Shown piece after piece: positions 1 to 59,387 of a DNA stretch of 64,000 nt (position 1 is the stretch's first letter; each line of letters opens with the position of its first letter). The notes beneath the pieces were generated by a model that was given only the letters and a program-made list of their open reading frames with translations, did no database searches and was not told the origin of the DNA. This stretch comes from an uncultured bacterium. GTDB taxonomy: Bacteria; Patescibacteriota; Minisyncoccia; Phycocordibacterales; DATDWN01. The translations under genes and the position numbers were made by a program. The stretch is taken from assembly GCA_963727715.1 (NCBI GenBank), contig CAVSGX010000004.1:82582-146581 (forward strand), written 5' to 3'.

Positions 1-2495
<2,495 letters not shown>

Positions 2496-7597: not shown

Positions 7598-7691
7598 TAT
7601 ATACGCTCCTCGGCTCGGAAATAAAATTTGCTAATTTTATTTCACTGGCCATATGTCGTTAATAAAAAATCCATAAAAGCTCAGGTGTCTT

Positions 7692-7850
7692 TTATGGTTC
7701 ATTCGTAGCGGCAGTTTGTATAGCTGGAGCAGTAGGTTTGTTTTTATCCTGATAAGCCCGAAGAGCCGCCACTACAATTAAACTAATAATAATGATGGCT
7801 GCAAAACCAAGCAAAAATTTCAAAAAATCTTTGTCAAAGTATTGCAACAT
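7692..7850 (-). CDS. Small hypothetical membrane protein (52 aa). Not in the ORF track because it is shorter than 60 aa.
   Basis: ATG at 7850; single hydrophobic helix (FLLGFAAIIIISLIVVAAL). Coding status is uncertain. Confidence 0.25.
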   Translation of the reverse strand: MLQYFDKDFLKFLLGFAAIIIISLIVVAALRAYQDKNKPTAPAIQTAATNEP

Positions 7851-7897
7851 AAAAATATTTTAACAAAGAAATTTTTTTGAAGCAATGTTGATAATTA

Positions 7898-13600: not shown

Positions 13601-14285
13601 CCTGTGCTAAACCACTTCTCTGAACTGTGATGGAGTTAACCGTCACATCAGATGCCCCAGCTGTCAAAGTGACAGTTGTGAATGGAACACGATTAGCGCT
13701 TTGAGGGGCCAATGAATTCATTGGTTGAACACCGGCCATAACTGTCAAATTGCCACCTGTTGGCATATTTGCTGTGGTGGTAGCGTACCTGTAGTCTGTG
13801 GTTGTAGTTGTAGTTGTGTTTGTTGTGCCACACATCGCGTTGAGCTTAGCTCGTGTGATAGCACCGACATAACCTGCTACCGGTGAAATACCATTGGCTG
13901 TCTGGAATTTCATCACCGCAGCTTTTGTCATCGGACCGAAGGTTGATGTTTCCATCCCCGGTGATCCCGCGCCTGTTGCGGCAACTTGTGTGGCAGCACT
14001 CTGGTTCAGAACTTTTTGCAAATTCATCACATCAGTGCCTTTGCTACCGACAGTCAAGTTTGTGTTGAATGTGTAGCATGTGCCTGTGGTAGCTGTGCTA
14101 CCAGTTGCGGCTGAAAGTTGAGCCTGAAGCGACTGAATTGTCGCCATCAAACTGTTGATCTGGGCTTGTATGTCAGCTGCTGTAGCGGCGCCCGCAATCA
14201 TAGGTGCGAAAGCGACTGCCATCATGGCAACTCCTACAAAACCAGTAACCAACTTTACAGCTGTTGATTTTGTTAAATTCTTCAT
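10659..14285 (-). CDS. Giant (1208 aa) cell-surface protein. Signal peptide, coiled-coil, PG-binding domain, then a long Thr/Ser-rich region with probable Ig-like repeats.
   Basis: N-terminal MKNLTKSTAVKLVTGFVGVAMMAVAFAPMIAGA. The segment ADIQAQINSLMATIQSLQAQLSAA plus the PG-binding motif (GTDVMNLQKVLNQ...GAGSPGMETSTFGPMTKAAVMKFQ). The rest is extremely T/S/G/N-rich. Confidence 0.7.
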   Translation of the reverse strand: MKNLTKSTAVKLVTGFVGVAMMAVAFAPMIAGAATAADIQAQINSLMATIQSLQAQLSAATGSTATTGTCYTFNTNLTVGSKGTDVMNLQKVLNQSAATQVAATGAGSPGMETSTFGPMTKAAVMKFQTANGISPVAGYVGAITRAKLNAMCGTTNTTTTTTTDYRYATTTANMPTGGNLTVMAGVQPMNSLAPQSANRVPFTTVTLTAGASDVTVNSITVQRSGLAQDAVFAGIVLVDPTGMQVGIAKTLNSNHQAVIGNPFVIKAGTSETFTVAGNMASSLTNYAGQVASLNVVAVNTSATVAGSLPITGAQQTINASLTLGSATINTSSFDPNNGASEPIGTTGYRFSGFKVTAGSAEDLTLKSISWNQTGSVGSGDLANVVTVVNGTSYPTVVDATGKYYSTVFPGGIVITKGNSVDMYIQGDIVGSNSSGRTAEFDVYKNTDLYLVGNTYGYGITAPVGTGVVLTLANHATVINTSSNPWFEGSQASITAGSVTLIGKANEVASQNLAVNVPNQVLGGFATNFAGEPVSIQSMYFVVATSSTIGNVASALSPASQITSVSLVDQNGAVVAGPVDVAVGDGSTTHAGVVPSTTSYAVIHFTDTVTFPVGRYVYTLKGKLPSGWANGTTVNVFTEPYTDWTNVTGQSTGNTVSLSGQTTVISMNQMTVRAATLAVNISAQPAAQSVVGGAQNFVLANYQLDASQSGEDLRLSSFPVTVTAGNSSIGDLTGCTLNNGQTQLNTGSNVVNSLTSGTYHTFSFDNSLTVPKGTIVTLALECNIASSPTTNATYYATNDTNTAHYTVTGITSGNSVTPTFGTANGGLMTASTGSLSASIDSSSPGYALAAGGTTGQIMSVIKLRATNESVNLNKIGLVLTSTAAGNSSNVAGDLSQVYLYQGSTLLGTATFASGGTIATSTLSSPLVLQNNIDTLITVKADLADIGTNQSGTEGDLIKIDLSSTEGSGASSGSTIRTGAATGSAGVRVFNTIPTFTLGTLSSTGIADGHLMRFAITADSHGDAGLYKFTFTLATTTITVRDVGLFGYTDSGYSTAMSGNFAKGGTSNGGQIDENLATSSASNICTGSGSDTVNTTNAGSTCASDSSKTTLTFRTASNPVEVPAGQTRYFELRGSVTGISGTYGGSVVTKMLADTAAATSTATGVGAGTTYNFVWSPNATSTSVFSSNDWTTGYGIVGLPSSGLLWTRSN

Positions 14286-20284: not shown

Positions 20285-21339
20285 CTTTCCAAAAGCGACA
20301 GGAATGAAATCAAGATTTTGTTGGACAAAAAATATTCACAGAGAGACATTGCTCTGTCCTTAGGCAGAAGCAACTCAACCATTTCGGAAGAAATCAAGCT
20401 TGGCTCGGTTAGAAGCAAATATGATCCGCTCAAAGCTCACCACAAAGCATATGTCAGACGGTGGCAGTCCAAATACCAAGCGATGAAAATAGTGGAAGAT
20501 ACAGAACTGAGAAATTTTGTGGAGAAAAAACTTTTGAAAGACGATTCACCGGTCAATATTTCAGGCAGAATCAAGAAGCATGAAAAATATCTGACAAACA
20601 TTTCCAAAAACAGCATATACAGATACATCGAAAGCCTGTATGGCAGAAGAATTGAAAATCACAGGAACAAAAGAAAACAGAGGAGAAAAAATTGCAGACC
20701 AAAGTCGGAAAAGCTCAAAGACAGAGTTTTCATCGCCAAAAGACCTAAATATATAGCCACTAGAAAAAGAATTGGTGATGCTGAAGCTGATTTCATTGTT
20801 TCCGGCAAAAGTGGCAAAGGAATATTGCTTGTTGTTGCAGACCGAAAGTCTAGGACTCCATTTTTGGAGAAAATACTTCCAACCACCATTACTGAAGTTG
20901 AAAAGGGGTTTTTGAAAATCAAAGAGAGATTTCCTGAACTGAAAACTTTGACTTTGGACAACGACATTCTTTTCAGGCATCATGTGAGACTTGAAAAACT
21001 TTTGAATATCAAAATATATTTTTGCAACCCGTACCACTCTTGGGAAAAAGGCACTGTTGAAAAAGTGAACCGAGAGATACGAAAAGACATTCCGAAAGGC
21101 AGCAACATTTCCAAATATTCCAGGCAATTCATCTGTTCGATTGAAGAGAAACTTCAAAACAAAATATACAAATGTTTGAACTACCACACCCCTTTTGAAG
21201 TCTTGAACAAGCACAGAAAAAGAAAAAACACCTCTGACTCCAATTAGTCAGGGTGTTCGGTTTGAGGGGGGTTCGCAGGTGCTACCTCCACTTGTCATTA
21301 TACACCTTTTAAATTTAAAGTCAAGTGGATTTTGAGGCC
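20210..21339 (+). mobile_element. IS30-family insertion sequence, copy A. Ends are approximate; putative imperfect terminal inverted repeats ggccctagattcc..cacttg / caagtggattttgaggcc.
   Basis: Encodes the IS30-type DDE transposase (see CDS 20256-21247). Size ~1.1 kb, typical for IS30. Confidence 0.5.
20256..21247 (+). CDS. IS30-family transposase, apparently frameshifted at the N-terminus. ATG 20256 is followed by an A7 run; the HTH continues in the -1 frame, and the ORF track starts at TTG 20318.
   Basis: The C-terminus LTLDNDILFRHHVRLEKLLNIKIYFCNPYHSWEKGTVEKVNREIRKDIPKG is colinear with the second IS30 transposase (36871-37815). The in-frame upstream sequence FSHLSKSDRNEIKILL aligns with FKHLSYEERVLISAL of copy B but has no in-frame ATG. 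Confidence 0.7.
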
Positions 21340-24347: not shown

Positions 24348-25202
24348 TTATTTAGTCAATTTGAAATTTCTCACTGCATTTTTCACCAAAGTTTTTTTGA
24401 CCAAGTCGAGATTCTCACCGCGGATGCGGGCAATGGCTGAGACGACTTCTGGAACGTAGAGTGGAGAGTTGCGTTTGCCACGATATGGCGCCGGCGCGAC
24501 AAACGGCGCATCTGTTTCAGACATTATCATTTCAATCGGCGCGTAGCGAATATATTCATTATATTCGCTGGTAAAAGTGACAACGCCAGCGAAAGAAACA
24601 GTAAAGCCAATATTCAAAAATCTTTTCAAAACTTCCAAACCCCCGACAAAAAAGTGCGCGTTGCCATGAAGTTTTTCACCGACGGTTTTAGTATGATGTT
24701 CTAGAATTTCCAGAGCGTCGAAATACGCATCAAAATTTATTTTATCTGACGGACGGATGTGAAGCATCAAAGGCTTCCCGACAAGAAGTGACAGTTCAAT
24801 TTGTTTTTCAAAAATTTCTTTTTGGGCTTTTTTTATTTTCTCCGCGTCTTCAGTTAGACGGAAATAATCCAGTCCGCACTCGCCGATAGCCACGACTTTT
24901 GGATTTTTGGCCAGTTCGGAAATTCTCTCGTCAAATCCACCTGGTAAATTTTCGGGGTGTTGGCCAACACAGGCAAAAATATTTTCGTGCTTTTCAGCAA
25001 GCTCAATTTCTTTTTTTGAAGTATCAAAATCAACACCGACGGAAATGGTGCCGATTTTACTTTTCTTCATTCCTGAAATTATTTCTTCCCTGTCCGCGTT
25101 GTAATCAGGAAATGACAAGTGTGAGTGTATATCAAAATATTCAAACATTTTAATCTTTTCGCAAAAAGAGCGGTTTTTCTGGAGATTTGTTTTCTTTAAC
25201 AA
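24348..25202 (-). CDS. TatD-family metal-dependent DNase/hydrolase.
   Basis: FDIHSHL...VVAIGECGLDYFR...LMLHIR are TatD signature segments. Confidence 0.85.
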   Translation of the reverse strand: MLKKTNLQKNRSFCEKIKMFEYFDIHSHLSFPDYNADREEIISGMKKSKIGTISVGVDFDTSKKEIELAEKHENIFACVGQHPENLPGGFDERISELAKNPKVVAIGECGLDYFRLTEDAEKIKKAQKEIFEKQIELSLLVGKPLMLHIRPSDKINFDAYFDALEILEHHTKTVGEKLHGNAHFFVGGLEVLKRFLNIGFTVSFAGVVTFTSEYNEYIRYAPIEMIMSETDAPFVAPAPYRGKRNSPLYVPEVVSAIARIRGENLDLVKKTLVKNAVRNFKLTK

Positions 25203-26608
25203 GTTTTTTTATTTTTTCAGATGTTTTTGGCATTATTGGATTTAGCATTTTGGCAACAGAATACAATCTGACAATCAATTCCGTTATCATTTTTTGTCCG
25301 GACTCTTTGTTGGTCTTCACTACTTTGAACGGTTGATTTTCCTGAATGAATTTATCCATCTCGGTAATTTCAGTCCAAATAAAATCGCAAGCTTTGGAAA
25401 TTTCAAATTGATCGATCAAGTCAAAAAATTTTTGTGGGATTGATTCTTCTGGAATTTTTATTGGTTTATCTAAATTATTTTCTGCCATTTTCATCACCCG
25501 CGAAACTAAGTTGCCGAGACCATTAGCTAGATTGGCATTGTAGGCCTCTTTGAATTTTTCCATTGTGAAAATGCCATCTTCAAAAGGAGGAATTTCTCTG
25601 ACCATGAAATAACGTAGTGGATCAGCCCCATATTCGGCCACCACTTCATAAGGATCGACGGTATTGCCAAGACTCTTGCTCATTTTGACACCACCTTCGC
25701 CGGTGATAAAACCATCAATTACAATTTGTTTGGACGGCGTAAGTCCCGCGGACTTGAGCATGGCTTGCCACATAGCCGACTGTTGGCGCAGATTGTCCTT
25801 GCCTGCATACTGAACCACCCCGCCGGAATTTTTCCACCATTTTTCAAATTTTTCCGGATCACTCGGCCAACCGATAGCCGAAATGTAATTGACCAGAGCG
25901 TCAAACCAAACATACATGACATGATTGGAATCGTTTGGCACGGGCACACCCCACGGCATTTTTTCTTTCAAACGAGAGATACTGAAATCTTCCAAACCCC
26001 TTTCCACAAATTTTTCTATTTCATATTGTCGAAATTGCTGGAAAAACAAATTTTGGATTTTCTTTGTACAAATCCAAAAGATATTTTTGATATTTGGAAA
26101 ATTTAAAAAAATAATTTTCTTCTTCGCGGATTTCGATTTGGCGATTTGGGTGCAGTGGGCATTTTCCATCCATCAAGTCCGATTCGGTTTTTGGCAACTC
26201 ACAACCAGTGCAATATTTTATTTTGTAATTTTTTTTGTAAATGTCTCCAGCTTCAAAACATTTTTGCCAAAAGGCTTGAGCTGATTTAATATGATGCTCG
26301 TCTGTTGTGCGAATAAAATTATATTCTACACCGGAAACATTTGAAGCAAGATCTAAAAGTTTAGCCAAGCCTTTGAATTTTTCAACGGAAGTATCAACAT
26401 ATTCTTGTGGTGTTTTGTCTTCATTTACGGCATTTTCATATATTTTGGCTCCGTGTTCATCCGTACCAGTATTGAAAAAAACCTCAAAACCCTGAAGTTG
26501 CTTGCTTCGGGCGATAATGTCAGCCCGAATGATTTCCATGGCAAAACCGATGTGAGGATCAGAATTCACATACGGCAAAGTCGTGGTGATGTAAAAAGTT
26601 TTTTCCAT
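25150..26608 (-). CDS. metG: Methionyl-tRNA synthetase, split into two overlapping ORFs (26021-26608 and 25150-26169) by a 1-nt frameshift near 26036-26050.
   Basis: The N-terminal part has the HIGH-region equivalent (PYVNSDPHIGF) and a Zn-knuckle CTGC..C. The C-terminal part has KMSKS and the anticodon-binding domain. The frames join cleanly at ...LYKENPKF / QQFRQYEIEKFVERGLEDFSISR. Confidence 0.85.
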
Positions 26609-36829: not shown

Positions 36830-37868
36830 TGTTAGTTAACCTTTGAATTTAGACACTCAGTTAGAAATAATTGAGTGATATGAAAACATTTAAACATTTG
36901 TCATACGAGGAAAGAGTTTTGATTTCAGCTTTGTTCTCCGAGGGTTGGAGTGCAAGGAAAATTGGAAAGAAACTTGGCCGGCACCATTCATGCATTGCCT
37001 ACGAAATGAAAAAGAAAGTGAAAGGTTTGTATGTAGCCAAGAAAGCTCACCACAAAACATACTGGAGGAGATATTTAAGCAAGAAGCAGTGTATGAAAGC
37101 TGCTTTGGACAGAGAACTGTCCAAATTCATTCCGGAGAAATTGAAAGAAGGATGGTCGCCGGAGAGAATATCAGGGTATTTCAAACTGCAAGGAAAAAAC
37201 ATCTCAACTAAAGCGGTGTACAAATTCGTGTATTCCAGATGTTTGGAAAGATATCTGTTTTGGAGAAAACACCACAAGAAAAGTGGTTGGAAAAAGAAAA
37301 GATACGGTAAAGCCATCGATGAGAGAAAATACATTGAAGACAGACCGAAAATGGAGAGATCTGGACACTGGGAGGGAGATTTCATTGTCTCATCTCACAA
37401 CGCTTGTTCATTATTTGTCTTGGTTGACCGATATTCCAGAGATACCATCACTCGCAAAATTCCAAACAGAAAGCACGCAACGGTATTGCGTGCTTTCTTG
37501 GATTCTCTGCGTAATATGCCAGTCAAGACAATTACACTAGACAATGATATCGCATTTAATTGTTGGAGGAAACTGGAAAAACAACTAAAATGTTCGATAT
37601 ATTTCTGTCACCCATATCACTCCTGGGAAAAGGGTTTGGTTGAAAATACAAACAAATGGATCAGGGTGTTTGTTCCAAAGAGAAAAGATTTGAGAGAAGT
37701 CACAGAAGAAGAGCTTCGTTCAATTGAAAAGTTTTTAAACGAAATTCCTCGTCAATGTCTTGGATTTAGGACAGCAAAAGAGGTATTATTAGATTCAATG
37801 AAGTGTCTAAATTGAGGGGTGCGGAAACGTCCTCGCTATAATACAGGTATTACAATTAACTAAAATAC
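36830..37868 (+). mobile_element. IS30-family insertion sequence, copy B, inserted between tuf and rpsJ. Putative terminal inverted repeats ttagttaacctttgaattt / aattaactaaaatact.
   Basis: Carries the transposase at 36871-37815. Ends are approximate. Confidence 0.55.
36871..37815 (+). CDS. IS30-family DDE transposase (intact).
   Basis: N-terminal HTH (LSYEERVLISALFSEGWSARKIGKKLGRHHSCIAYEMKK). DDE core ...HWEGDFIVS...TLDNDIAFNCW...HPYHSWEKGLVENTN. Confidence 0.85.
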   Translation: MSDMKTFKHLSYEERVLISALFSEGWSARKIGKKLGRHHSCIAYEMKKKVKGLYVAKKAHHKTYWRRYLSKKQCMKAALDRELSKFIPEKLKEGWSPERISGYFKLQGKNISTKAVYKFVYSRCLERYLFWRKHHKKSGWKKKRYGKAIDERKYIEDRPKMERSGHWEGDFIVSSHNACSLFVLVDRYSRDTITRKIPNRKHATVLRAFLDSLRNMPVKTITLDNDIAFNCWRKLEKQLKCSIYFCHPYHSWEKGLVENTNKWIRVFVPKRKDLREVTEEELRSIEKFLNEIPRQCLGFRTAKEVLLDSMKCLN

Positions 37869-41176: not shown

Positions 41177-44100
41177 TTAATTATGTTTTGTCGCCATTAG
41201 GAGTGCGGTCTTAAAACTTTTTTTGGCCAGTTTGAAAGCTCTATCATATACGGTGTCGGCCATCAAAAAGTTGTGGTGAAGTTTTGGATCAAGGTTAAGT
41301 TTCAAACCTTTTTCTGTTAACAAACCTTTGGCAATTTCCTTGCCGTTGAGAAGAGCATGGATTTCGTCCGGATGACCCGGGACACCATGAATGAGACTTA
41401 ATCTGCCATTTTCAAACGCAAAGTTGGTTGTACTCTTTGGGACCGGGATGTTCATTCTGTCTTGAGCTATGACAAAAGCCTCACGAATCGGTGCGCTTTT
41501 TGGTCCATCTTGGAATCTATCGAGTAGTTGCATCCCGCTTGCGCCATTTGGCAATTTGACGGACTGTGCTACCGCTTCACCCTGAACAAAAATTTGTTTT
41601 TGTCCCCCGGCCACTTCAACAACACTCGTATGAAATTTCCCTTCTGCACCATTTGCTGCTTTGACAATGTGATCAAACTCAATGGCACCGGGCGTTTTAG
41701 GTGTGTTGGCTAGATTTTCGCCGACATGAGAAAAATTATGGATGTTGACCGGAGCGTGCGCTAAATCGGTATCAACCGGTTTGGAAAAATCAAGTGGTTT
41801 ATAATTTCCTGACACCTTATACGGTTCTGACACCAAAAATTCATTTTGGGGCTCGGTAACATCGGCAGGTTTCGGCGCCACAATTTCGTGCGGAACTGGC
41901 GCTTTCGGAGCAAACATTTTGTCGGAGTGTAGTGATTCAAAATTGTGCTCGCCTGTGCCAATAATTTCTGTTGGCTTGCCGGCGGCGGTTAGGTGTTCCA
42001 ATTTCAAATGACCTTCAGCGTCAACAGCCAAAGCTTCGCCTTTCAGCCCCATCGCGCTCGTGCCATGTTTGGCATCCCAAAAGCCATACTCTTGTGCCAG
42101 TTTGGTGCTCGGAGTTTCCACAAAATGTTTAACACCAGCCGGCATTTTACCCGCGTCAGGATATTGCGCTTTCAGTTTGTCTTTCATATCGTCAAATGTC
42201 TGGATAAATCCGCGGGAAGAAAGTTTGACTTCAACCACATTGGTCGCCTCCGGCATCTTCGGTCCAAGCGGAGGAGTAGCAACTTTGGGAGCGGGCGGCT
42301 GAGTGACGACTTCAGATACTTTCGGCGCAGGTGGTGTTTCGGCGGGCATTGTTAGTTTGACGGTTGGTGGCGCTTCGGTTAGAACAGGAGGTTTTGCTAC
42401 GGTTGGAGTTTCAGCCGGCATAGCTGGCTTTGCCGTGACAACTTCGGCGTGCGTTGTCCCGGTTTTTGGTGTGTTTTCAGAGTGGAACATTTTGTAAAAG
42501 AAACCATGTTGTCCAGATTGGACAGCGCCCGGAACATTGCCAAATTGATTGGCCATGGTTAAATCAGTGGCTATATTGACCCCGGCGCCGACAGCCACCA
42601 TAACCGCAGCCTTTTTTAAAATGCCACGCTTTTTTCTGTTTTCTTCTTTCTCTTTCAATCCCATCAACTCTTTTTCTTTGATTTCATAATTGTCTTCAGT
42701 CAATCCTTCAGCATATCTTCTCAAATTTTTTTGTTTCTTCCTTTCCAAACTCCATTTGGTGATTGAATCCACACCTTTGCCTGCCGCTTGACCAGCCAAA
42801 GCGCCGCTAAGAGATCTCGCCCCTCTGTAAGCCAAAGTTGTGCCGATACCAACAGTAGCCACAGTGCCGAGAGTCATACCAAGGCCAGTCATAACAGCCG
42901 TAGTCAAAGCGATTCTGGCCGGCAAAGGCAACTTGGCCCATTTTTCAAATGATTTGCCAATAATTCCCTTCTCCAAAGGCGGGACATTCTCGGCGATTCT
43001 TTTTTGCAAAACTTCCCATTCCTTTTCGGCTTGAGTAATAGCTCTACACTTGAAAATTGCGGATGCTTTTTCTTCATTTGACAAATTTTCATCCAAACCA
43101 AGATCATTTATTTCTTTTTCAATCCCGGGCATCGAAAAAATTTCTTCCATCTTTTTTTTCTTGGATTGGATATAGACGGCTTCGGCCGCTTCTAGTCGAA
43201 CTTTGACTTCTGTCATGTCTTGCGGAGTAACCTTATCAAATCTGTGAAATATTTCGTCTATTTTTTCTTCTAGACCAACTTTGGACGCCAAACCCCTGGT
43301 GGTTCTGTGGATAAAACTTCTGTTATTCATTATGTCCTCAGTTGTCTCACCTAAGCCTACACTGTTGGCCAAATCACTGGCTTGTTTATAAACCCATTTT
43401 TTCTTTTCCCGATTTTTATTTTTAAACTCCACCAAAACACTGGCATAAGTACCTCGCGCCTCGGCCAATTCCATGTCCACTTCGGAAAGTGCTTCCGCCA
43501 CTAGTGGAGCATTTTCAACCGCCCCAGACAGCACCGGCTCAGGTGGTAATGGACCAGCTACTGGTATTACTTCCGGACTGGCAGAAGGTTGCGGGGTTAC
43601 TTCCTCTTCTTGCCCAGGTTGCTGAAATTCTTCTTCATATTCGGCAAACTCATCAATACCAAAAATACCAAACAGTTCTCTCCTTTCGGCTTTACTTAGG
43701 TGACCTTTCTCAAGGTCAAAATCAATTTCTCTTTCCAATCCTTTTTTCTTGGATTCATACGGCTCAGAACTTCTGGAGGATTCTTCTATGATTGTAATGA
43801 GATTCCCTAAATTGGAATGATCTTCACTCTTGGACAAGGTTACCAAAAATTCAACGGCCTTTTCATATCTCTCTGATTCAGGATTTTCTTTTTGTTCTTC
43901 CGTTGTTTCAAAATTTTTACCGGCAGTTTTCACTGATGTTAACGGTTCTGTCGGTTCTACTTCCGTTTCCGAAGCTGGAATAACAGGTGGAAAAGGTAGG
44001 AAATCTTTGTTTGACACACTCGGAGAATTATCTTCAACTGGGGCTGACTCTTCTTCTGCTGTTATTATCGGCTCAACAATATGTTCAGAAGTTATTGGTT

Positions 44101-44482
44101 GATTTCCATTTAAGGCTTCAATTATTTTTTCATACCCCTTTATTTTTTCAACAAAACTGGACGCCCTTTCTTTTTTTTCTTCTTCATTATAATCGTTATT
44201 AGACAAAATAAATTCCAAAGTCCTTCTATCATTTGCAAGTCTTTCTTCAAAAAATTTTACTGGGTTAGATTCTAATGTAGATATTTCCCCCCGACAAAAT
44301 TCAACCATTCTTTCATCGTTTTTTGCACCAAAATGTACTAGTTGTTCTTTGTATCTTTGAAGTTCTTCATTAATACGAACCGTGACAAATTCTGGTCTGT
44401 GTTCCCTAGGATTCATATGATCCTCCAATTCTTGTTTGAGCGCCTTTGGATCTATATTTAAAGCATTTGGAGACTCCATGTT
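41177..44482 (-). CDS. Giant hypothetical protein (~1100 aa): acidic coiled-coil N-terminal half, Pro-rich linkers, two or more TM segments in the middle, C-terminal globular part. The start is uncertain (44482 or 44539).
   Basis: Hydrophobic segments LTTAVMTGLGMTLGTVATVGIGTTLAY and AAVMVAVGAGVNIATDL. Low-complexity PAPK/PPAP repeats. No catalytic motifs recognised. Confidence 0.5.
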   Translation of the reverse strand, partial: NMESPNALNIDPKALKQELEDHMNPREHRPEFVTVRINEELQRYKEQLVHFGAKNDERMVEFCRGEISTLESNPVKFFEERLANDRRTLEFILSNNDYNEEEKKERASSFVEKIKGYEKIIEALNGNQPITSEHIVEPIITAEEESAPVEDNSPSVSNKDFLPFPPVIPASETEVEPTEPLTSVKTAGKNFETTEEQKENPESERYEKAVEFLVTLSKSEDHSNLGNLITIIEESSRSSEPYESKKKGLEREIDFDLEKGHLSKAERRELFGIFGIDEFAEYEEEFQQPGQEEEVTPQPSASPEVIPVAGPLPPEPVLSGAVENAPLVAEALSEVDMELAEARGTYASVLVEFKNKNREKKKWVYKQASDLANSVGLGETTEDIMNNRSFIHRTTRGLASKVGLEEKIDEIFHRFDKVTPQDMTEVKVRLEAAEAVYIQSKKKKMEEIFSMPGIEKEINDLGLDENLSNEEKASAIFKCRAITQAEKEWEVLQKRIAENVPPLEKGIIGKSFEKWAKLPLPARIALTTAVMTGLGMTLGTVATVGIGTTLAYRGARSLSGALAGQAAGKGVDSITKWSLERKKQKNLRRYAEGLTEDNYEIKEKELMGLKEKEENRKKRGILKKAAVMVAVGAGVNIATDLTMANQFGNVPGAVQSGQHGFFYKMFHSENTPKTGTTHAEVVTAKPAMPAETPTVAKPPVLTEAPPTVKLTMPAETPPAPKVSEVVTQPPAPKVATPPLGPKMPEATNVVEVKLSSRGFIQTFDDMKDKLKAQYPDAGKMPAGVKHFVETPSTKLAQEYGFWDAKHGTSAMGLKGEALAVDAEGHLKLEHLTAAGKPTEIIGTGEHNFESLHSDKMFAPKAPVPHEIVAPKPADVTEPQNEFLVSEPYKVSGNYKPLDFSKPVDTDLAHAPVNIHNFSHVGENLANTPKTPGAIEFDHIVKAANGAEGKFHTSVVEVAGGQKQIFVQGEAVAQSVKLPNGASGMQLLDRFQDGPKSAPIREAFVIAQDRMNIPVPKSTTNFAFENGRLSLIHGVPGHPDEIHALLNGKEIAKGLLTEKGLKLNLDPKLHHNFLMADTVYDRAFKLAKKSFKTALLMATKHN

Positions 44483-44678
44483 GCTTTCATTATATTCCCC
44501 TATAAAAATATTCGCAACAAAAAAGATCCTATTTTGCATTTCTCGAAAAGCAATCTGTCTAGCCCTGCTGGGCTAGTGAACTTCTCGTCGTCCAAGAAAA
44601 CAATCCACGGATTACCGTGGTTGTTTTCTAAACTCCTGCGAAAGGCTTTTCTTGAAACACAAAAAGGATTTGCGTGAA

Positions 44679-46838
44679 TTATTTTCTTGCCTCAATTATC
44701 GCTTTCTCAACATTCGGCGGGACGACTTCATAGTGGTCAAATTCCATCATCATTGAACCGCGACCTTGGGTCATGGAGCGGATGTCTGTGGTGTAGCCGA
44801 ACATTTCGGAAAGCGGCACTTTAGCGTGAACGACACGAAGCTGACCGCGTTCATCCATTCCTTCTATTTGCCCGCGCTTGCCGGAAAGCGAGCCGGTAAT
44901 GTCACCCATAAACTGCTCCGGCATGACAACTTCCACTTTCATAATAGGTTCCAGAATGACCGGGCGAGCGCGCTTGGCGGCATCTTGGAAAGCCTGCGAA
45001 GCGGCGATTTTGTAAGCGATTTCGGAAGAGTCAACATCGTGATACGAACCGTATGTCAGCTCGCAGGAAACATTGACCATCGGATAGCCGGCGACAATCC
45101 CGCGACCCATCGCTTCGCGCACACCTTTCTCCACAGCCGGAATAAATTCCTGCGGGATGACACCGCCTTTGATGGAATCAATGAATTCAAAGTCATCGTA
45201 GCGTTTGACATTTTTCGGAATTTTTTTGCCCTCGGCAATCGGCTCCATCGGTTTCAAATTTAATTTGACGTGACCATACTGACCTTTGCCACCGGTTTGT
45301 TTGATGTATTTGTGTTCGGCTTCGGCCGTGCCGAGAATGGTTTCGCGATATGCCACTTGCGGTTTGCCGACATTGGCTTCCACCGAAAATTCTCGCTTCA
45401 TTCTTTCAACCATAATTTCCAAGTGGAGCTCGCCCATGCCGGAAATGATAGTCTCACCGGTTTCGGTATTACTCGAAATAACAAATGTGGGGTCCTCGTC
45501 GGAAAGTTTTTTCAAAGCCAAACCCATTTTTTCCTGGTCGGCTTTTGTTTTCGGTTCAATGCGCAAAGAAACGACAGGGGCCACGAATTTGATCGGTTCA
45601 AGGATGATCGGCTTGTCCTCGTCGCAGAGCGTGTGTGAAGTTTTGGCTGATCTTTAATCCGACAGCCGCGGCGATTTCGCCGGCGAAAACTTTTTTGACT
45701 TCTTCGCGCTTGTCGGCTTGCAGACGGACGATGCGACCGAGACGTTCTTTTTCGCCTGTTGTTGAATTGTAAATATATGTGCCCGCCTCAATCGTCCCGG
45801 AATAGACGCGGAAGAAAGTCAGCTGACCGACGAACGGATCGTTTTGCAGTTTGAAAGCCAGAGCGGCAAAGGGCTCTTCGTCTGAAGCGTTGCGATAAAT
45901 ATCCTCACCGGTTTTCGGGTCTGTTCCGTGTACCGGCGGAATATCAGAGGTGATGGTAAATAGTCCACCACTCCGTCGAGAACGAGCTGCACGCCTTTGT
46001 TTTTCAGCGCCGAACCGGCGTAAACAGGAACGATTTTGACGGCGATGCAAGCTTTGCGCAAAGTGGTTTTGAGTTCTGGGACAGACGGCTCGCTTCCTTC
46101 CAGATATTCATGCATCAGTTTGTCATCTTCGGAAACAATTTTTTCCACCAGTTCATCGCGATATTTTTTTGCTTCTTCCAAATATTCTGCCGGCATTTCC
46201 GCCTCGCGAACGTTGATACCCATATTACCTTCAAAGTAGTAGGCTTTCATATCCAGCAAATCAATCACACCTTCAAATTTATCTTCCAATCCCATCGGGA
46301 TTTGCATTCGCACTGCGTTTTTAGTCAGACGATCCAAAATGGAAGCGTATGATCTTTCAAAACTCGCGCCTGTGCGGTCCAGCTTGTTGATGAAGCAGAT
46401 GCGTGGCACGTTGCCGTCGTCGGCATAGCGCCAGTTGGTTTCGGATTGTGGTTCCACACCGGCCACACCGTCGAAAACCACCACCGCGCCGTCGAGCACA
46501 CGAAGCGAGCGTTTGACCTCGGCTGTAAAATCAATGTGCCCGGGAGTGTCAATAATATTGAAACGATAAAGATTTTCATGCAGAGGTTTGCCGTCCGCGC
46601 CACGAGCTTTGTATGTCGGGTTCCAGAAACAAGTGATGGCTGCCGCCGTGATAGTGATGCCGCGTTCCCTCTCCTGCTCCATCCAGTCGGTCACCGTTTC
46701 GCCCTCGTGCACTTCGCCGATTTTGTGGGTCATGCCCGTGTAGAAAAGCACGCGCTCCGAAGTGGTCGTCTTTCCTGCGTCAATATGGGCAATAATGCCG
46801 AAATTTCTGACTTTCTCTAATGGGTAATCTCTGTTCAT
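44679..46838 (-). CDS. fusA: Elongation factor G, fragmented into three ORFs (45819-46838, 45598-46050, 44679-45584) by two apparent 1-nt frameshifts (~45945 and ~45642).
   Basis: N-terminal [18 protein letters not shown]...DTPGHIDF...NKLDR. Domain [16 protein letters not shown].... Domains III-V ...[27 protein letters not shown].... The frames reconnect at ...VDYLPSPL|DIPPVHG and ...AAAVGLK..|..[14 protein letters not shown]. Confidence 0.9.
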
Positions 46839-49848: not shown

Positions 49849-50724
49849 CTATTTTTGCAAAACAAACTGTTTACCGTCGGAGTGCAAAACAATTCGGCCC
49901 AAATCGTATGTGCCGAGAATTTGCACACCGTACTTTTGCAGTGTGGCTACTGTTGTCGTGGCCGGAAAGCCGTAGCTGTTCCCTTTTTCGGCCGAGATAA
50001 CGGCAATTTGTGGCGCGACTTCTTTGACAAACTCATCCGAAGTGGAAGTTTTGGAACCATGATGCCCGACTTTCAAAATAGTGCTCTGTAAATTTTTCCC
50101 ATCAAGCGAGATTAAATAGTCTTCAATTTTTTTCGGCGAGTCCCCGGTCAAAAGCACGCTTGTGTCTCCGTAAGTCAGACGCGAAACGACCGAGGCGTCG
50201 TTACTAGCCAAACCGGAAACATCGCGATCGGGGAAAAGAATTGTAATTTGCGCGCCGTCACCAAGATCAATAACCTCTCCGCGCCTAGCCAAAATTTCAG
50301 GAATATTTTTTTCGACAATTTCTTTTTCCAATAATGCATAATCAGGTGTAGCCGAGCGATAACCAGACTCTACAACCACATCCACTTTGTAATTTTGCAG
50401 GAGCGAAATAAATCCGCTGTAATGATCGCTGTCCGAGTTGGTGATGATAATAGCGTCAATATGTTTGTCCCACCACGGCATAACGGCCGGCAGTTCGCGA
50501 ATCAAGTTGTCGTTTGGTCCACCGTCCATCAAAACTTTCACACCACCCGGCGATTCAATGAAAAGCCCGTCACCTTGACCGATGTTAAGCGCAGCGAATG
50601 TCAGACCGATTTGATTTTCGGCTAGTGTGACCGACCACAAAACAGCGCAGAAAACAAAAAGCGATAGCAACAAGTACCAGCGAAAATATTTTTTGATGTG
50701 GGAGAAAATTTGCTTCATACTCAT
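49849..50724 (-). CDS. Metallo-beta-lactamase-fold protein of the ComEC C-terminal-domain type, with a signal-anchor.
   Basis: Matches the ComEC MBL domain: …DAIIITNSDSDHYSGF… and …LKVGHHGSKTS…. Confidence 0.7.
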   Translation of the reverse strand: MSMKQIFSHIKKYFRWYLLLSLFVFCAVLWSVTLAENQIGLTFAALNIGQGDGLFIESPGGVKVLMDGGPNDNLIRELPAVMPWWDKHIDAIIITNSDSDHYSGFISLLQNYKVDVVVESGYRSATPDYALLEKEIVEKNIPEILARRGEVIDLGDGAQITILFPDRDVSGLASNDASVVSRLTYGDTSVLLTGDSPKKIEDYLISLDGKNLQSTILKVGHHGSKTSTSDEFVKEVAPQIAVISAEKGNSYGFPATTTVATLQKYGVQILGTYDLGRIVLHSDGKQFVLQK

Positions 50725-53023: not shown

Positions 53024-55201
53024 ATGAATTTAAATTCTCCACTTTCGGACGTACTGCGAATACTGCCGGCGCACAAAAAGGCGTTGGACAAGCTTGGGCT
53101 GAAAACAGTCAGGAATTTGCTTTACCATTTTCCGGTACGATATGGCAACACAAAAGAAATAAAATACATTGGGTCGCTTTTGGCCGGTCAGGAAGCGACT
53201 GTTTTTGGCACAGTGACCGGACTGAAAACAAGCAGGGGTTTCCGTAGTAGAATTCCGATGTCGGAGGCCACGCTTTCCGATGAGACGGGTAAAATAAAAA
53301 TCGTCTGGTTCCATCAGCCATACATCGCCAAGATGCTCCACGAAGGCGCGAGTGTGCGCGTACAGGGGAAAATTTCCGAAAAAAGAAAGAAAGATGCTGA
53401 CGGACACGGAGAGATTTATTTTTCAAATCCGAAAGTGGAAGTGGTGCGGAGTATTCCCGTCGGCGTCGGCAAAAGTCTTTTTGGCCAGTCGGGCGACGAG
53501 CATAGTTTGTATCCGGTTTATCCGGAAAGTCGCGGAGTAACTTCCAACTGGATTTACCACGCCGTTGAAAAAATTTTTCGTAGCGACATTTTGGAAAATT
53601 TAGAGGAAAACATCCCGCCAGAGATTTTAGAAAAATATAATCTGCCATCTCTCAAGACCGCGCTGATTTGGATTCACACGCCGAAAAAAGAATCCGACGC
53701 CGAAGCGGCCCGCAAAAGATTCGCTTTTGAAGAAATTTTTTTCATTCAGCTTCAAAAACAGCGCGATAAAAAAATCTGGCAGAGTGAGAAAAGTTTTGAA
53801 ATTTCTCCGAACAAAAAAAATGTTGATGAATTTGTGGCGCGATTTCCTTTCACCCCGACAGAAGCCCAGAAAAAAGCTGTTTATGTGGTGCTGGCCGATT
53901 TCAAAAAAGGTCATCCGATGTCGCGACTACTTGAAGGAGACGTCGGGAGTGGCAAAACAGCTGTGGCTGCCACATGCGCTTTCGCCGTAGTGACAAGTCG
54001 ACCAAACGGCCAAGATTTCGGCAACTTGCAAGTCGCCTACATGGCCCCGACGGAAATTTTAGCCAAACAACATTATGAAAATTTTATTGGATATTTCAAA
54101 CATCTACCAATTAAAGTCGGACTTCTGACCGGAAGCGACTGCCAGATTTTTCCAAGCAAATCCGACCGAACAAAACCGACCAAAATTTCTCGTGTTCAAC
54201 TTTTGAAGTGGGTGGCCAATGGCGAGGTGCCGATTTTGATTGGCACGCACGCACTCATTCAAAAATCTGTCGCATGGAAGCACTTGGCATTCGTGGTCAT
54301 CGACGAACAGCACCGCTTCGGCACGGCCCAACGCCAGAAACTGATACAAAAAAATTCCGTCGCGCCACATCTCCTGACCATGACCGCCACCCCGATTCCC
54401 CGCACTTTGGCCTTGACCATTTACGGCGATTTGGATTTGACTTTGCTTGACCAAATGCCCGTCGGTAGAAAACCAATTATTACCAAAATTATTTTGCCAC
54501 AGAACAGAGAAAAAACTTATGAGGAAATCTCGCGAGAACTTGAAAACGACCGTCAACTTTATGTCATTTGCCCGCGCATTGAAGAGCCCGACCCGACCAA
54601 AGAATTGGCCATTATTGCCAAATCGGTCAAACTGGAAGCTGAGCGGTTAAAGCGCGACATTTTCCAAAAATGGAACATCGGCATTCTGCACAGTAAAATG
54701 ACGCCAGCCGAAAAAGAAAAAACCATGCAGGAATTTTTGGCAAAAAAAATTGATATTCTGGTTGCCACATCTGTGGTAGAAGTCGGCGTTAATGTGCCGA
54801 ACGCCACTATGATCGTCATTGAAGGCGCCGAACGCTTTGGTCTGTCGCAACTTCACCAACTGCGCGGACGCGTCATTCGTTCAAACCATCAAGCCTACTG
54901 TTTTGTTTTCACCGAAAGCAAAAGTGAGAAAACGCGCGAGCGCTTGAAAGCGCTGACTACAGCCAAAAATGGTTTTGAACTTTCCGAATTTGATTTGGCA
55001 CAACGCGGAGCCGGCGAACTTTATGGCAGAAAACAATGGGGCATCTCGGACTTGGCCATGGAAGCCATCAAAAATATAAAAATGGTGGAAGCGGCTCGCT
55101 TGGAAGCCACACAAATTATTGACTCTGACCAGCTACTGCAAAAACACCCGAAACTTTTGGATCACATTTCAAATCAAACAAACGCCATTCATTTTGAATA
55201 A
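53024..55201 (+). CDS. recG: ATP-dependent DNA helicase RecG.
   Basis: N-terminal wedge/OB domain. Helicase motifs GDVGSGKT, DEQHRFG. C-terminal helicase domain. Confidence 0.92.
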   Translation: MNLNSPLSDVLRILPAHKKALDKLGLKTVRNLLYHFPVRYGNTKEIKYIGSLLAGQEATVFGTVTGLKTSRGFRSRIPMSEATLSDETGKIKIVWFHQPYIAKMLHEGASVRVQGKISEKRKKDADGHGEIYFSNPKVEVVRSIPVGVGKSLFGQSGDEHSLYPVYPESRGVTSNWIYHAVEKIFRSDILENLEENIPPEILEKYNLPSLKTALIWIHTPKKESDAEAARKRFAFEEIFFIQLQKQRDKKIWQSEKSFEISPNKKNVDEFVARFPFTPTEAQKKAVYVVLADFKKGHPMSRLLEGDVGSGKTAVAATCAFAVVTSRPNGQDFGNLQVAYMAPTEILAKQHYENFIGYFKHLPIKVGLLTGSDCQIFPSKSDRTKPTKISRVQLLKWVANGEVPILIGTHALIQKSVAWKHLAFVVIDEQHRFGTAQRQKLIQKNSVAPHLLTMTATPIPRTLALTIYGDLDLTLLDQMPVGRKPIITKIILPQNREKTYEEISRELENDRQLYVICPRIEEPDPTKELAIIAKSVKLEAERLKRDIFQKWNIGILHSKMTPAEKEKTMQEFLAKKIDILVATSVVEVGVNVPNATMIVIEGAERFGLSQLHQLRGRVIRSNHQAYCFVFTESKSEKTRERLKALTTAKNGFELSEFDLAQRGAGELYGRKQWGISDLAMEAIKNIKMVEAARLEATQIIDSDQLLQKHPKLLDHISNQTNAIHFE

Positions 55202-56434: not shown

Positions 56435-57034
56435 TTATTTTTTGTAGAAAAATTTGCTCTTATTGTTAGTAAATTCTTCAAGAAGTTCCGACCAATATTT
56501 ATTGACTATTTTTGATTTGGAAATCTTTTCATTTTTATTTTCCACCACTTCTTCAAAAGTTACTCTCATTTCCTTGTGTAATTTCCCATCTTCAAGATAA
56601 ATTTGAATTGGTGGCAAAAGTTTATCAAGAGCATAAATAAATCTGCTTTCCTCGTCTTGTTTCTTTTCATATCTTTCAATAATTTTTGCCAAAGATTTAA
56701 AAAATGGAAATTTTTCTTTTATTTTTTTCAAAGATTCTTTTTCTCTTTTATGTTTTGAAGAATTTAAATTTTTATCCACAAAAAACGTGTCCCCCGCATA
56801 AATCTCCACCAAATCGTGCGCCAGAGCGTACATAAAACAAAGCTCTTTGTCGAGTTTGAGTTTGTCCTGCTCAATCAAAAACCAAGCCACCATGGCCAGC
56901 TGGTAACTATGCTCGGCGTCGTTTTCAAAACGTTCGCGAAATGGGGGTCTGGCTACGCGGATAATCTCCTGAAATTCATGAGTAAATTCAATAAAGTCCA
57001 AGAGCTGTTCAAATTCTTTGGAAAATTTTTTCAT
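56435..57034 (-). CDS. HD-domain phosphohydrolase (YfbR-like).
   Basis: …NDAEHSYQLAM… and …HDLVEIYAGD… are the two halves of the HD metal-ligand motif. Confidence 0.75.
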   Translation of the reverse strand: MKKFSKEFEQLLDFIEFTHEFQEIIRVARPPFRERFENDAEHSYQLAMVAWFLIEQDKLKLDKELCFMYALAHDLVEIYAGDTFFVDKNLNSSKHKREKESLKKIKEKFPFFKSLAKIIERYEKKQDEESRFIYALDKLLPPIQIYLEDGKLHKEMRVTFEEVVENKNEKISKSKIVNKYWSELLEEFTNNKSKFFYKK

Positions 57035-57036
57035 TG

Positions 57037-57110
57037 TCCGCCCTCCACGACTCGAACGTGGGACCCTCGAGGTATAAGCTCGATGCTCTAACCAACTGAG
57101 CTAAGGGCGG
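57037..57110 (-). tRNA. tRNA-Ile with anticodon UAU. CCA is not encoded.
   Basis: Perfect cloverleaf CCGCCCT-TA-GCTC-AGTTGGTTA-GAGC-A-TCGAG-CTTATAC-CTCGA-GGGTC-CCACG-TTCGAGT-CGTGG-AGGGCGG-A. Anticodon loop CU-UAU-AC. Confidence 0.8.
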
Positions 57111-57169
57111 ATATTTTAAAACTATACTAGCATAAAACAAAGTCCGAAAAAACAAAAGACTAGCCGAAG

Positions 57170-57394
57170 CTAGCCTATATGATAAACAAGAGAATCTCCC
57201 GGGTGACGGACCGGTAAACCACCGTCTGGTTTTAAAACCATTGGTTCTAAACTGTCATCCCTCCCGCATTTATTGCAAATTTCATGAACAACAGTTTTAC
57301 CATCTTCTTCAATCAGTATATCCTCAATAATACCACCACAAGCAACAAGCTCTCCATCAATCAAACGAACACCCCCACATTTTCTTATACTCAT
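57170..57394 (-). CDS. Small zinc-ribbon protein (75 aa).
   Basis: GGAGA Shine-Dalgarno 5 nt upstream of ATG 57394. Two CxxC-like pairs (C..GG...CGG ... C.KCG). The ORF-track start at 57466 would overlap the ftsH stop. Confidence 0.45.
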   Translation of the reverse strand: MSIRKCGGVRLIDGELVACGGIIEDILIEEDGKTVVHEICNKCGRDDSLEPMVLKPDGGLPVRHPGDSLVYHIG

Positions 57395-57449
57395 GACAGT
57401 CTCCTTGTTTAAATTAACATAAAAACCAAAAACAGACAAGTCCAAAAAT

Positions 57450-59387
57450 TTACACTTGATGTTCAATATCCATTTTCTGTTTCGGAGTGATGCCGTGAGA
57501 AATCAGGATTTGCTCAAACTCCGGTCTCTCGATTGTTTCCACATCCATCAGACGTTTGGCGATGGCGTCAAGAAGCGGACGGTTTTCGGTGATGGTGTTT
57601 ATGGCTTTGCTTTCAGCCTCTTTCATAATGCGCGAAACTTCAGCATCAATATCGGCAGCCACTTTCTCGGAAAATTCTTTTTCTTCCACACCGCGACCGA
57701 ACAAAACTTTGCCACCCTGCCCTTCCAGCGCCACCGGTCCGAGTTTTTCCGACATCCCATATTTCGTGACCATATCGCGAGCCAAAGCGGTGGAAACCTG
57801 CAAATCGTTTGATGGTCCTGTGGTCAAATCATCAAAAAGCATTCTCTCGGTCACATAACCGCCGAGGGAAACAGCGATGTCGTCCAGAAATTCTTTTTTG
57901 GATTGCAGTTTTTTGTCTTCAAACGGCAGTTTCAAAACATAACCGGCGGCGTGCCCGCGCGAGATGATGGAAATTTTGTGCACCGGATCGGCATACGGCA
58001 AAATGGAAGCCAAGACGGCATGGCCGGCTTCGTGGTAAGCGGTGATTTCTTTTTCTTTTTTGGAAAGAATGTGACTTTTGCGTTCCGGCCCGAGCATCAC
58101 TTTTTCTATGGAGCGAATTAAATCATACTGCGAAACTTTTTGGCGATTTTCGCGCGCGGCTAAAATAGCGCCTTCGTTCATCAGCGAATACAGATCGGCG
58201 CCGGAAAATCCGGGTGTGCGTTCGGCGATGACTTTCAGATTGACATCCTCGGCGAAGGGTTTTTTGACAGCATGCACTTTCAAAATTTCTTCGCGGTCGG
58301 CCCGATCTGGCAAGTCCAACGTGACCCGTCGGTCAAATCTGCCCGGTCGCAAAAGAGCGGGGTCTAAAACATCTGGACGGTTTGTCGCCGCCATGACAAT
58401 CACTTTTTCGTTCGGTTCAAAACCATCCATTTCCACCAAAATCTGATTGAGGGTTTGTTCGCGTTCGTCATTCCCGCCACCGGCGCCAACACCGCGAATT
58501 CTGCCGACCGCGTCAATTTCATCCACAAAAATAATGGCTGGCGCGTTTTTCTTGGCCATTAAAAATAGATCACGCACACGCGAAGCGCCGACACCAACAA
58601 ACATTTCCACGAACTCCGAACCGGAAATGGAAAAGAAAGCTACACCGGCCTCTCCCGCCACAGCCCGAGCTAGCAAAGTTTTGCCTGTGCCAGGCGCGCC
58701 CATGAGTAGTATGCCTTTTGGAATTCGCGCCCCGATGTCTAGAAACTTTTTTGGATTTTTCAAAAAATCCACAATTTCTGAAAGTTCTTCTTTGGCTTCT
58801 TTGCAACCGGCCACATCTTTGAATGTCACGCGTTGCGATTTGTCGTTCGGATCAATCATTCTAGCTTTGGATTGGCCAAAAGTCAGAGCTTGCATCCCTG
58901 CCCCGCGAACTTGCCGACTGATAAACCAAATAAAAATCAAAATAAAAAGCAGAGGAAAAATAATCGGAGCCAAATTGACCATCCAATAACCAAAACCTGT
59001 ATCTTCTTTGACAGTGATGCTAACTTTCCCGATGTCAGCTGGGGCCAAACCATAATTGACCAATGTTTGCGACAGAGCCTCGCCCGATTCTTTCTTGGCG
59101 TTTTTGATATCACCATTTTTGTATGTCAGTTGCAAATCGTCGCCTGTCACCACGATGCTAGTTACACTGCCGACTTTGATGTCTGTTGAAATTTGCGAAA
59201 GAGAAACGGTCGGCACCGATTTGGTTTTGTTGGAAATGTAGGAATAAGCCGAGGACAGCACAGCAAAAATAATTATTACCGATAAAATATATGTCAAAAT
59301 AGACCAGCCACTTTCCGGGTTGTCTTTCTTGTTCGGCGATTTTTTGATGATTATTTTGGTTGGTTTTTTTGGATTTTCCGGGTTCAT
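57450..59387 (-). CDS. ftsH: ATP-dependent zinc metalloprotease FtsH.
   Basis: N-terminal TM helices. AAA module GAPGTGKT...; protease HEAGHA. Confidence 0.97.

Follow-up and report, generated by a model that had tools for sequence, protein, structure and literature searches.

A tRNA-Ile gene with an encoded UAU anticodon beside ftsH as the probable AUA decoder of a lineage of the Candidate Phyla Radiation

The stretch of DNA analysed here, called the window throughout, comprises 64 kb of a contig from an uncultured bacterium of the Candidate Phyla Radiation (CPR, or Patescibacteria), and carries on its minus strand, between ftsH and a gene for an HD-domain hydrolase, a tRNA gene whose UAU anticodon is encoded in the DNA itself. 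This tRNA-Ile(UAU) probably acts as the dedicated decoder for AUA, an isoleucine codon, in its lineage, in place of TilS and its lysidine-carrying substrate tRNA-Ile2(CAU). The gene and its decoding elements are located as follows:

57037 to 57110, minus strand: tRNA-Ile(UAU) gene, 74 nt (ARAGORN, Rfam, direct reading and covariation among orthologues)
57074 to 57076, minus strand: anticodon UAU (ATA on the plus strand), with the wobble base U34 at 57076
57072 to 57078, minus strand: anticodon loop C32-U33-U34-A35-U36-A37-C38 (direct reading)

ARAGORN, run over the window, reports a tRNA-Ile with anticodon tat at 57036..57110 of the minus strand as one of two tRNAs, the other being tRNA-Ala(tgc), and the Rfam model RF00005 matches 57037-57110 of the same strand over model positions 1-71 of 71, with 66.3 bits (E = 3.3e-12, gathering score 29) and no non-canonical pairs flagged. 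Read directly, the RNA is CCGCCCU-UA-GCUC-AGUUGGUUA-GAGC-A-UCGAG-CUUAUAC-CUCGA-GGGUC-CCACG-UUCGAGU-CGUGG-AGGGCGG-A, in which C1-G72, G3-C70, C4-G69, C5-G68, C11-G24 and U12-A23 are paired, the discriminator is A73 and the CCA end is not encoded. A C1-G72 pair is an unusual first pair for a tRNA, and bacterial tRNAs of this kind receive the name tRNA-Ile3 from tRNAscan-SE. The minimum-energy fold of the single sequence is not a clean cloverleaf (z = -2.4), and it is the comparative evidence from 33 orthologues that settles the structure.

These 33 distinct orthologues, which come from five relatives reached by way of the adjacent HD protein and from loci retrieved with FtsH, were collected through proteins only, the tRNA never being the query. 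The five relatives that the HD protein led to are independent, share 59-73% identity in it, and all have a tRNA-Ile(tat) with ftsH on one side and the HD gene on the other. Across the whole set, the stretch C32-U33-U34-A35-U36-A37 is unchanged (33/33), and position 38 varies, with C in 19 sequences, U in 7 and A in 7. Double compensatory changes are seen in 17 of the 21 stem pairs, 99.3% of the cloverleaf cells are paired, and the covariation score of 0.754 compares with 0.183 for shuffled alignments, none of 500 reaching it, and with 0.149 at most for slid controls. An earlier note on this DNA, made from its letters alone, had proposed a genuine tRNA with the loop CU-UAU-AC, which is borne out by the agreement of ARAGORN and Rfam and by the covarying stems; as to the misread wobble base that it named as a possible flaw, T34 is present in 33/33 protein-retrieved orthologues and in 129 UAU tRNAs overall, and because it is kept in all orthologues from independent assemblies it is a lineage trait rather than an error. 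The locus is thus a genuine, selected tRNA gene of functional type with a fixed UAU anticodon. Every lineage near that of the window has C or U at position 38, whereas A38 is found in the Ile2- and Met-type CAU tRNAs examined; C/U38 is a derived feature of the loop that, speculatively, may tune decoding or recognition by isoleucyl-tRNA synthetase (IleRS).

The isotype was addressed with the acceptor-stem rule that parts isoleucine tRNAs from elongator and initiator methionine tRNAs (G3/A3-C70/U70 and further positions; PMC1635315). The window tRNA has the isoleucine-type acceptor features G3-C70, C4-G69, C5-G68 and A73, together with U12-A23, and of the 129 UAU tRNAs 107 have G-C and 19 have A-U as their 3-70 pair, with A73 in 126 and C4-G69 in 93. 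The CAU tRNAs lying near UAU genes in relatives are of fMet or Met type with C3-G70, one case being ambiguous. Initiator tRNAs are recognizable by CAU and C3-G70 together with A11-U24/G12-C23 and an R29-G30-G31 anticodon stem. An elongator or initiator tRNA-Met is ruled out by the UAU anticodon, by G3-C70 in the place of C3-G70 and by C11-G24 with U12-A23; a suppressor tRNA is ruled out, since UAU pairs with AUA and not with a stop codon; and a tRNA-Ile2(CAU) acting as a TilS substrate is ruled out by the T, not C, at 57076 of the minus strand, a base from which lysidine cannot be made. The use of stop codons in the window is ordinary (TAA 24, TGA 8, TAG 7). The isoleucine isotype, which the earlier note had wished to see separated from tRNA-Met and from a suppressor, is therefore supported by the acceptor features, A73 and the anticodon, and the tRNA would be charged with isoleucine and read AUA as isoleucine.

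AUA codons are in regular use in the window. Counted over 39 open reading frames (ORFs; 35 with Pfam matches and four long ones taken by length) and 13,873 codons, ATA occurs 150 times, which amounts to 10.8 per 1000 codons and makes up 15% of the isoleucine codons, and in the genes for ribosomal proteins and elongation factors its frequency is 7.6 per 1000. Of the 15 ATA positions that could be aligned with orthologues from Escherichia coli, 12 have V, I or L on the E. coli side and none has M, and ATG codons align with M at 28 of 64 positions. By this use, and by the alignment with V, I or L and never with Met, AUA is an isoleucine-like sense codon in these genes, and it needs a decoder.

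TilS is usually regarded as universal and essential in bacteria, the known exceptions amounting to a few dozen genomes (Mycoplasma, Bifidobacterium, Neorickettsia), apart from metagenomic tRNA-Ile(TAT) genes that are unassigned. Its gene adjoins ftsH in many bacteria, among them other Mycoplasma (PMC1635315) and the cultivated saccharibacterium S. epibionticum, in whose gene table tilS (SEML1_0730, 294 aa) is the gene immediately upstream of ftsH. The neighbourhood of ftsH was compared in 80 loci, metagenome contigs retrieved by the FtsH protein of the window alone at 49-83% identity. A UAU tRNA is present in 28 of them and tilS in 10, no locus has both, 16 with full flanks have neither, and 26 have incomplete flanks. 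The 28 tRNA-Ile(tat) genes lie within 5 kb of ftsH, mostly directly downstream and on the same strand, and the 10 TilS genes, confirmed by Pfam and not all shown to belong to CPR, lie directly upstream. For the zero overlap between both features the hypergeometric P is ~0.01, a value that ignores kinship among the loci.

Pfam scans (PF01171) and a TilS hidden Markov model (HMM) found no TilS in the 64-kb window, nor is tilS present upstream of the window ftsH, its place in TilS-type CPR, and the window holds no tRNA-Ile2(CAU) gene, its two tRNAs being tRNA-Ile(tat) and tRNA-Ala(tgc). TilS is likewise missing from ~160 UAU-bearing loci. A phmmer search with E. coli TilS found no match in 1.06 Mb of UAU loci, although it is able to detect the protein, as the same search recovers TilS in the 10 TilS-type loci; an HMM built from these 10 found nothing beyond them in ~1.8 Mb of fetched loci. 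For 85 ORFs upstream of ftsH, there is no strong PF01171 match among the 25 commonest of the 57 Pfam families matched, and 10 further ORFs in the 'tilS position' of UAU loci, looked at down to E <= 0.1, contain no TilS remnant, being of TyrRS/TrpRS type, S1-domain proteins or without a family match. The loss of TilS that the earlier note gave as one consequence of the UAU anticodon is supported indirectly, at the level of loci (the window, ~160 UAU loci and 0/80 co-occurrences), and would have to extend to the whole genome. A search with E. coli IleRS over the window and all loci found only an archaeal IleRS (L062), plus weaker class-I synthetase-like ORFs.

The TilS-type loci show what the other arrangement looks like in CPR. 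Relatives of the TilS of locus L182 are named Patescibacteria group, candidate division Kazan and Parcubacteria group, the last clade being Moranbacteria, and because of these names the short TilS proteins can be placed in CPR. In the CPR-labelled locus L213 the order is cmk-tilS-ftsH, two ORFs, tRNA-Val(gac) and tRNA(cat), and this CAU tRNA is of Ile2 type (G3-C70, C4-G69, C5-G68), with an anticodon arm much like that of E. coli ileX. Ile2-, fMet- and Met-type CAU tRNAs are clustered upstream of tilS-ftsH in L215 (8383-9845; CPR-labelled) and in L182 (3021-3849). Among UAU-type loci, the UAU tRNA is clustered with one fMet- and one Met-type CAU tRNA in L035 (1-1223), L071, L085, L119 (2932-4902, from a complete Woesebacteria genome) and L129 (1523-4153). 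The simplest reading is that CPR would have two alternative AUA-decoding modules, both tied to ftsH, and that the lineage of the window has the UAU module. As separate observations, AUR-box tRNAs are often clustered near ftsH in CPR genomes, and several CPR initiator tRNAs begin with U1 or A1, not C1.

The spread of the gene was followed with a pattern scan over one genome per GTDB species, using a relaxed pattern made of the D arm and the CTTATA loop, which matched at least 120 loci. ARAGORN calls tRNA-Ile(tat) in 79 of 80 matches listed, and in 129 loci overall. Among the 120 matches listed, the record titles name CPR in 74, an unnamed 'bacterium' in 17, other phyla in 11 and archaea, mostly DPANN, in 6, and the other 12 bear 'Gammaproteobacteria/Pseudomonadales' Third Party Annotation (TPA) titles, at least some of them being CPR by content. 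The CPR titles are Nomura-, Kaiser-, Taylor-, Adler-, Vogel-, Uhr-, Magasanik-, Kuenen-, Woese-, Shapiro-, Davies-, Dojka- and Peribacteria, with Paceibacterota, 'Patescibacteria group' and 'Saccharibacteria' also counted as CPR. The TPA titles 'uncultured Candidatus Saccharibacteria' and 'Gammaproteobacteria' are unreliable; the FtsH of L122 is among the closest to that of the window, and the initiator tRNA of L035 is almost identical to that of a 'Patescibacteria group' metagenome-assembled genome. Within an 8-kb block, ftsH accompanies the tRNA in 44 of the 120 matches listed and recG in ~30. Published counts give 9-19 bacterial species with tRNA-Ile(TAT), plus 371 unassigned metagenomic sequences (PMC3575796, PMC4013482, PMC8450103). 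The rarity of an encoded UAU, as put forward in the earlier note, therefore holds for cultured bacteria but is wrong for this lineage, since the pattern matches are mostly CPR-titled (at least 74) and syntenic. The encoded UAU tRNA is the normal state for the lineage of the window, and is widespread and syntenic in CPR. The literature searched contained no paper that connects CPR with TilS, with lysidine or with the decoding of AUA; systems of this kind are already known, and it is their lineage-wide occurrence here that may be undescribed.

The genes and signals around the tRNA in the window are these:

53024 to 55201, plus strand: recG, the second recurrent neighbour of the ftsH-tRNA block (Pfam)
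56435 to 57034, minus strand: HD_3/YfbR-like HD-domain phosphohydrolase, 199 aa (Pfam PF13023, 1.8e-29)
57035 to 57036, minus strand: 2-nt spacer CA between A73 and the ATG of the HD gene (direct reading)
57147 to 57176, minus strand: terminator-like GC hairpin with a T-run where the 98-aa ORF ends, 36 nt upstream of the tRNA (consensus pattern match only)
57170 to 57466, minus strand: 98-aa ORF between ftsH and the tRNA (no family match)
57450 to 59387, minus strand: ftsH, conserved in CPR lineages as the upstream neighbour of the tRNA (Pfam)

The start of the HD gene lies 2 nt past A73, as the earlier note had observed, and the ATG at 57034 is credible because homologues of 196-203 aa, named Candidatus Nomurabacteria, Paceibacterota and Minisyncoccia, cover 96-100% of the protein. 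Junctions of 1-3 nt also exist in L004 (9990-10003) and L008 (9995-10003), and the distance is 104-151 nt in L001 and L005; the HD ATG thus follows the discriminator by 1-3 nt in three lineages. The tRNA and the HD gene are probably co-transcribed, since there is no room for a promoter between them. The only Shine-Dalgarno-like site (window 57034-57046) is a GGAGG 7 nt before the HD ATG that forms part of the 3′ strand of the tRNA, so that 3′ processing of the tRNA, in the manner of tRNA punctuation, would yield an mRNA that is nearly leaderless; as the CCA is not encoded, maturation after A73 would leave a leader of 2 nt. A promoter scan called none directly upstream of the tRNA, where a TATAGT hexamer can be read by eye 10 nt before its 5′ end. 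The 98-aa ORF has no Pfam or NCBIfam match and no homologue in the other fetched loci, and L001 has a 101-aa ORF in the same place. Upstream of the window ftsH come a superoxide dismutase gene on the opposite strand, a 141-aa ORF and ComEC. A metallo-beta-lactamase-fold protein at 49849-50724 was considered as an RNase Z and rejected, being ComEC-like. In related loci, tmRNA and smpB occur within a few kb of the pair formed by ftsH and tRNA-Ile(UAU) (L011, L020, L034, L043, L058, L066, L069, L073 and L004), and among the 85 ORFs examined on the upstream side of ftsH 14 encode SmpB.

The window as a whole encodes ribosomal proteins, EF-Tu, EF-G, RecA, FtsK, RecG, FtsH and ComEC, and contains a 23S rRNA fragment (271-2513, minus strand) that covers approximately the first 1200 positions with large insertions, one of them of 247 nt, and whose homology ends at 592. 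These genes, and the names of the HD-protein homologues, mark the organism as a CPR bacterium of the Parcubacteria/Paceibacteria type, resembling Nomurabacteria. The tRNA-Ala(tgc) that follows the 23S fragment (373-446) encodes its CCA end and shows G3.U70, a mismatch A4xG69 and an odd T loop, and a sub-threshold tRNA-like match of 27 bits lies at 271-337; the region could be a fragmented 23S rRNA, an intervening sequence or a misassembly. The EF-G gene (44679-46838, minus strand) has its domain II in another frame through two compensating frameshifts, and the methionyl-tRNA synthetase (MetRS) gene (25150-26608, minus strand) is split into two overlapping ORFs, defects that are indel-type assembly errors or pseudogenes. 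The split look of EF-G had raised genetic codes 4 and 25, which are ruled out because domain II lies in another frame, as expected from indels and not from in-frame UGA. An IS30-like transposase with HTH_38 and rve domains (36871-37815, plus strand) sits between rpsJ and tuf in the ribosomal-protein region, and a second ORF (20318-21247, plus strand) has the HTH_38 domain only. Two long minus-strand ORFs complete the list: one of 1120 aa (41177-44539) without a family match, between EF-G and a 99-aa ORF, and one of 1208 aa (10659-14285) with a peptidoglycan-binding domain only. Among the fetched loci, a well-formed tRNA-Ser of class II whose anticodon, ACU, has A34 is conserved beside tRNA-Ser(GCU) in L005-L009 (for example L005:19243-19331), near recG, and in L038 (4098-4185), which also has recG; serine anticodons starting with A are very rare in bacteria.

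The most likely explanation of the locus is that the tRNA is functional and acts as the dedicated AUA decoder of the lineage. Its U34 would pair with the A of AUA and isoleucine would be inserted, and the UAU tRNA would take the place of TilS and tRNA-Ile2(CAU), the pair kept by other CPR at the ftsH locus. Such a replacement would entail that the genome as a whole lacks TilS and tRNA-Ile2(CAU), that IleRS accepts the UAU anticodon, by analogy with Mycoplasma mobile, and that misreading of AUG is limited by an unmodified U34 together with competition by the ribosome and tRNA-Met, as measured in M. mobile, or else by some modification of U34, the other consequence that the earlier note gave. 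Several points weigh against this explanation. The tRNA lacks two identity elements of E. coli IleRS, having C38 and not A38, and G29-C41 and not C29-G41, and its overall identity of 71.6% to Ile2-type and 70.6% to Met-type tRNAs does not separate the two ancestries. The 10 TilS loci are all distant (50-55% FtsH identity) and the count of no overlap takes no account of phylogeny, and because 16 of the 80 loci have full flanks with neither feature, the linkage to ftsH is not universal and local absence is weak evidence. Indel-type defects elsewhere in the assembly also count on this side, and the expression, charging and modification of the tRNA are predictions. Finally, the genome was viewed through 64 kb, and tilS or tRNA-Ile2(CAU) may lie elsewhere in it.

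This last point leads to the possibility that the UAU tRNA is a redundant decoder, AUA being read both by it and by a lysidine-bearing LAU tRNA made by a TilS encoded outside the window, along with a tRNA-Ile2(CAU) gene; such double reading has been proposed for Lactobacillus casei and L. plantarum, Cyanothece and Ferrimonas. Both systems coexist in some bacteria, such as Lactobacillus casei and L. plantarum (PMC3575796), and TilS does exist in CPR (S. epibionticum and Kazan-like, Patescibacteria-group and Moranbacteria-like members); redundancy is nevertheless unlikely here, given that no FtsH-retrieved locus (0/80) has both features, that all loci with at least 60% FtsH identity and a usable downstream flank have the UAU tRNA and no tilS, that the ~1.8 Mb of fetched loci hold no TilS apart from the TilS-type ones, and that in five loci the UAU tRNA stands beside just two CAU tRNAs. 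It is far less probable that decoding is ambiguous or reassigned, with a U34 tRNA that is charged by MetRS or reads AUG as well as AUA, in which case AUA would not be a clean isoleucine codon: an unmodified U34 can wobble with G, the M. mobile tRNA-Ile(UAU) binds AUG on E. coli ribosomes (PMC3575796), and the identity elements at position 38 and 29-41 are unlike those of E. coli, but AUA aligns with V, I or L and never with Met, ATG aligns with Met at 28/64, the acceptor signature is of isoleucine and not of methionine type, and related loci have separate fMet and Met tRNAs. An artefact or a dead gene, be it a C-to-T error in a tRNA-Ile2(CAU) or tRNA-Met or a pseudogene, might be thought of in an assembly with frameshifted EF-G and MetRS genes; it is effectively refuted by T34 in 33/33 protein-retrieved orthologues and 129 UAU tRNAs from independent assemblies, by the covarying stems and by the nature of the assembly defects, which are indels and not substitutions. 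Acquisition through a phage or mobile element, brought to mind by the IS30-like transposase and by the one non-CPR match in L040, is hardly credible for a gene with a stable place among core genes (ftsH, recG, smpB/tmRNA) across many CPR lineages and with neither an integrase gene nor phage genes for neighbours in the window. The L040 match (Chitinophagaceae, 6408-7869) lies in a cluster of 11 tRNAs of the phage-carried kind that includes tRNA-Ile(tat) and tRNA-Ile(aat) and looks like a phage-type array.

The canonical system of TilS and tRNA-Ile2(CAU modified to lysidine) does the same job for AUA, with the same acceptor pairs G3-C70, C4-G69 and C5-G68 and the same ftsH neighbourhood, but it has C34 where the window tRNA has T34, and TilS was not detected in the window. 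In Bacillus subtilis, a single anticodon mutation in tRNA-Ile1 (G34U) is reported to make TilS dispensable; that laboratory suppressor derives from tRNA-Ile1(GAU) and misreads AUG to some extent, whereas the window gene is old, conserved and natural. In archaea such as Nanoarchaeum equitans and Korarchaeum cryptofilum, an encoded UAU takes the place of a modified-cytidine decoder, in association here too with ultrasmall organisms of reduced genome, and DPANN are among the pattern matches; archaeal and eukaryotic tRNA-Ile(UAU) differ in belonging to other domains, with another IleRS and other modification enzymes (TiaS or Pus1). The eukaryotic tRNA carries pseudouridine at positions 34 and 36, and nothing points to pseudouridine 34 here. 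The closest bacterial parallel is the tRNA-Ile2(UAU) of M. mobile (Taniguchi et al. 2013, PMC3575796; Silva et al. 2006, PMC1635315), where an encoded UAU also reads AUA, the genome is also reduced and tilS is gone from its usual place next to ftsH. However, it is for M. mobile that experiments showed an unmodified U34, a need for Arg865 of IleRS and a ribosome that rejects AUG; the M. mobile tRNA resembles tRNA-Ile(GAU), whereas the window tRNA, of either Ile2 or other ancestry, sits where TilS-type CPR keep an Ile2-type CAU tRNA, and its loop carries C38. Adaptation of IleRS to U34 would involve Arg or Lys at the position of E. coli Trp905 in decoding of the M. mobile type, or a eukaryote-type IleRS. 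Bifidobacterium and Neorickettsia also encode tRNA-Ile(TAT) and have no tilS (PMC3575796, PMC8450103), but they rely on a horizontally acquired eukaryote-type IleRS, and the window encodes no IleRS. L. casei and L. plantarum, Cyanothece PCC 7424 and Ferrimonas balearica share the encoded tRNA-Ile(UAU) but keep TilS.

A last question concerns how far the replacement reaches. That much of CPR permanently gave up TilS and lysidine and decodes AUA by the UAU tRNA beside ftsH, with Moranbacteria-like and Kazan-like members and S. epibionticum keeping tilS and tRNA-Ile2(CAU), is a wider proposal whose chances we judge to be even; it would cover the labels from Nomura- to Peribacteria named above for the pattern matches. 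If the pattern is genome-wide, a major bacterial radiation uses the encoded-UAU solution and would be by far the largest TilS-free group of bacteria. This would imply that IleRS and the anticodon loop (C/U38) have co-adapted throughout the lineage, possibly together with the ribosome or with a U34 modification of unknown kind, with matching changes predicted in the IleRS of CPR, and would offer many natural replicates of how U34 avoids the misreading of AUG. CPR genomes would be affected in their annotation and in estimates of their completeness, where tilS or three CAU tRNAs are expected, and TilS would no longer be a universal marker or drug target for these organisms.

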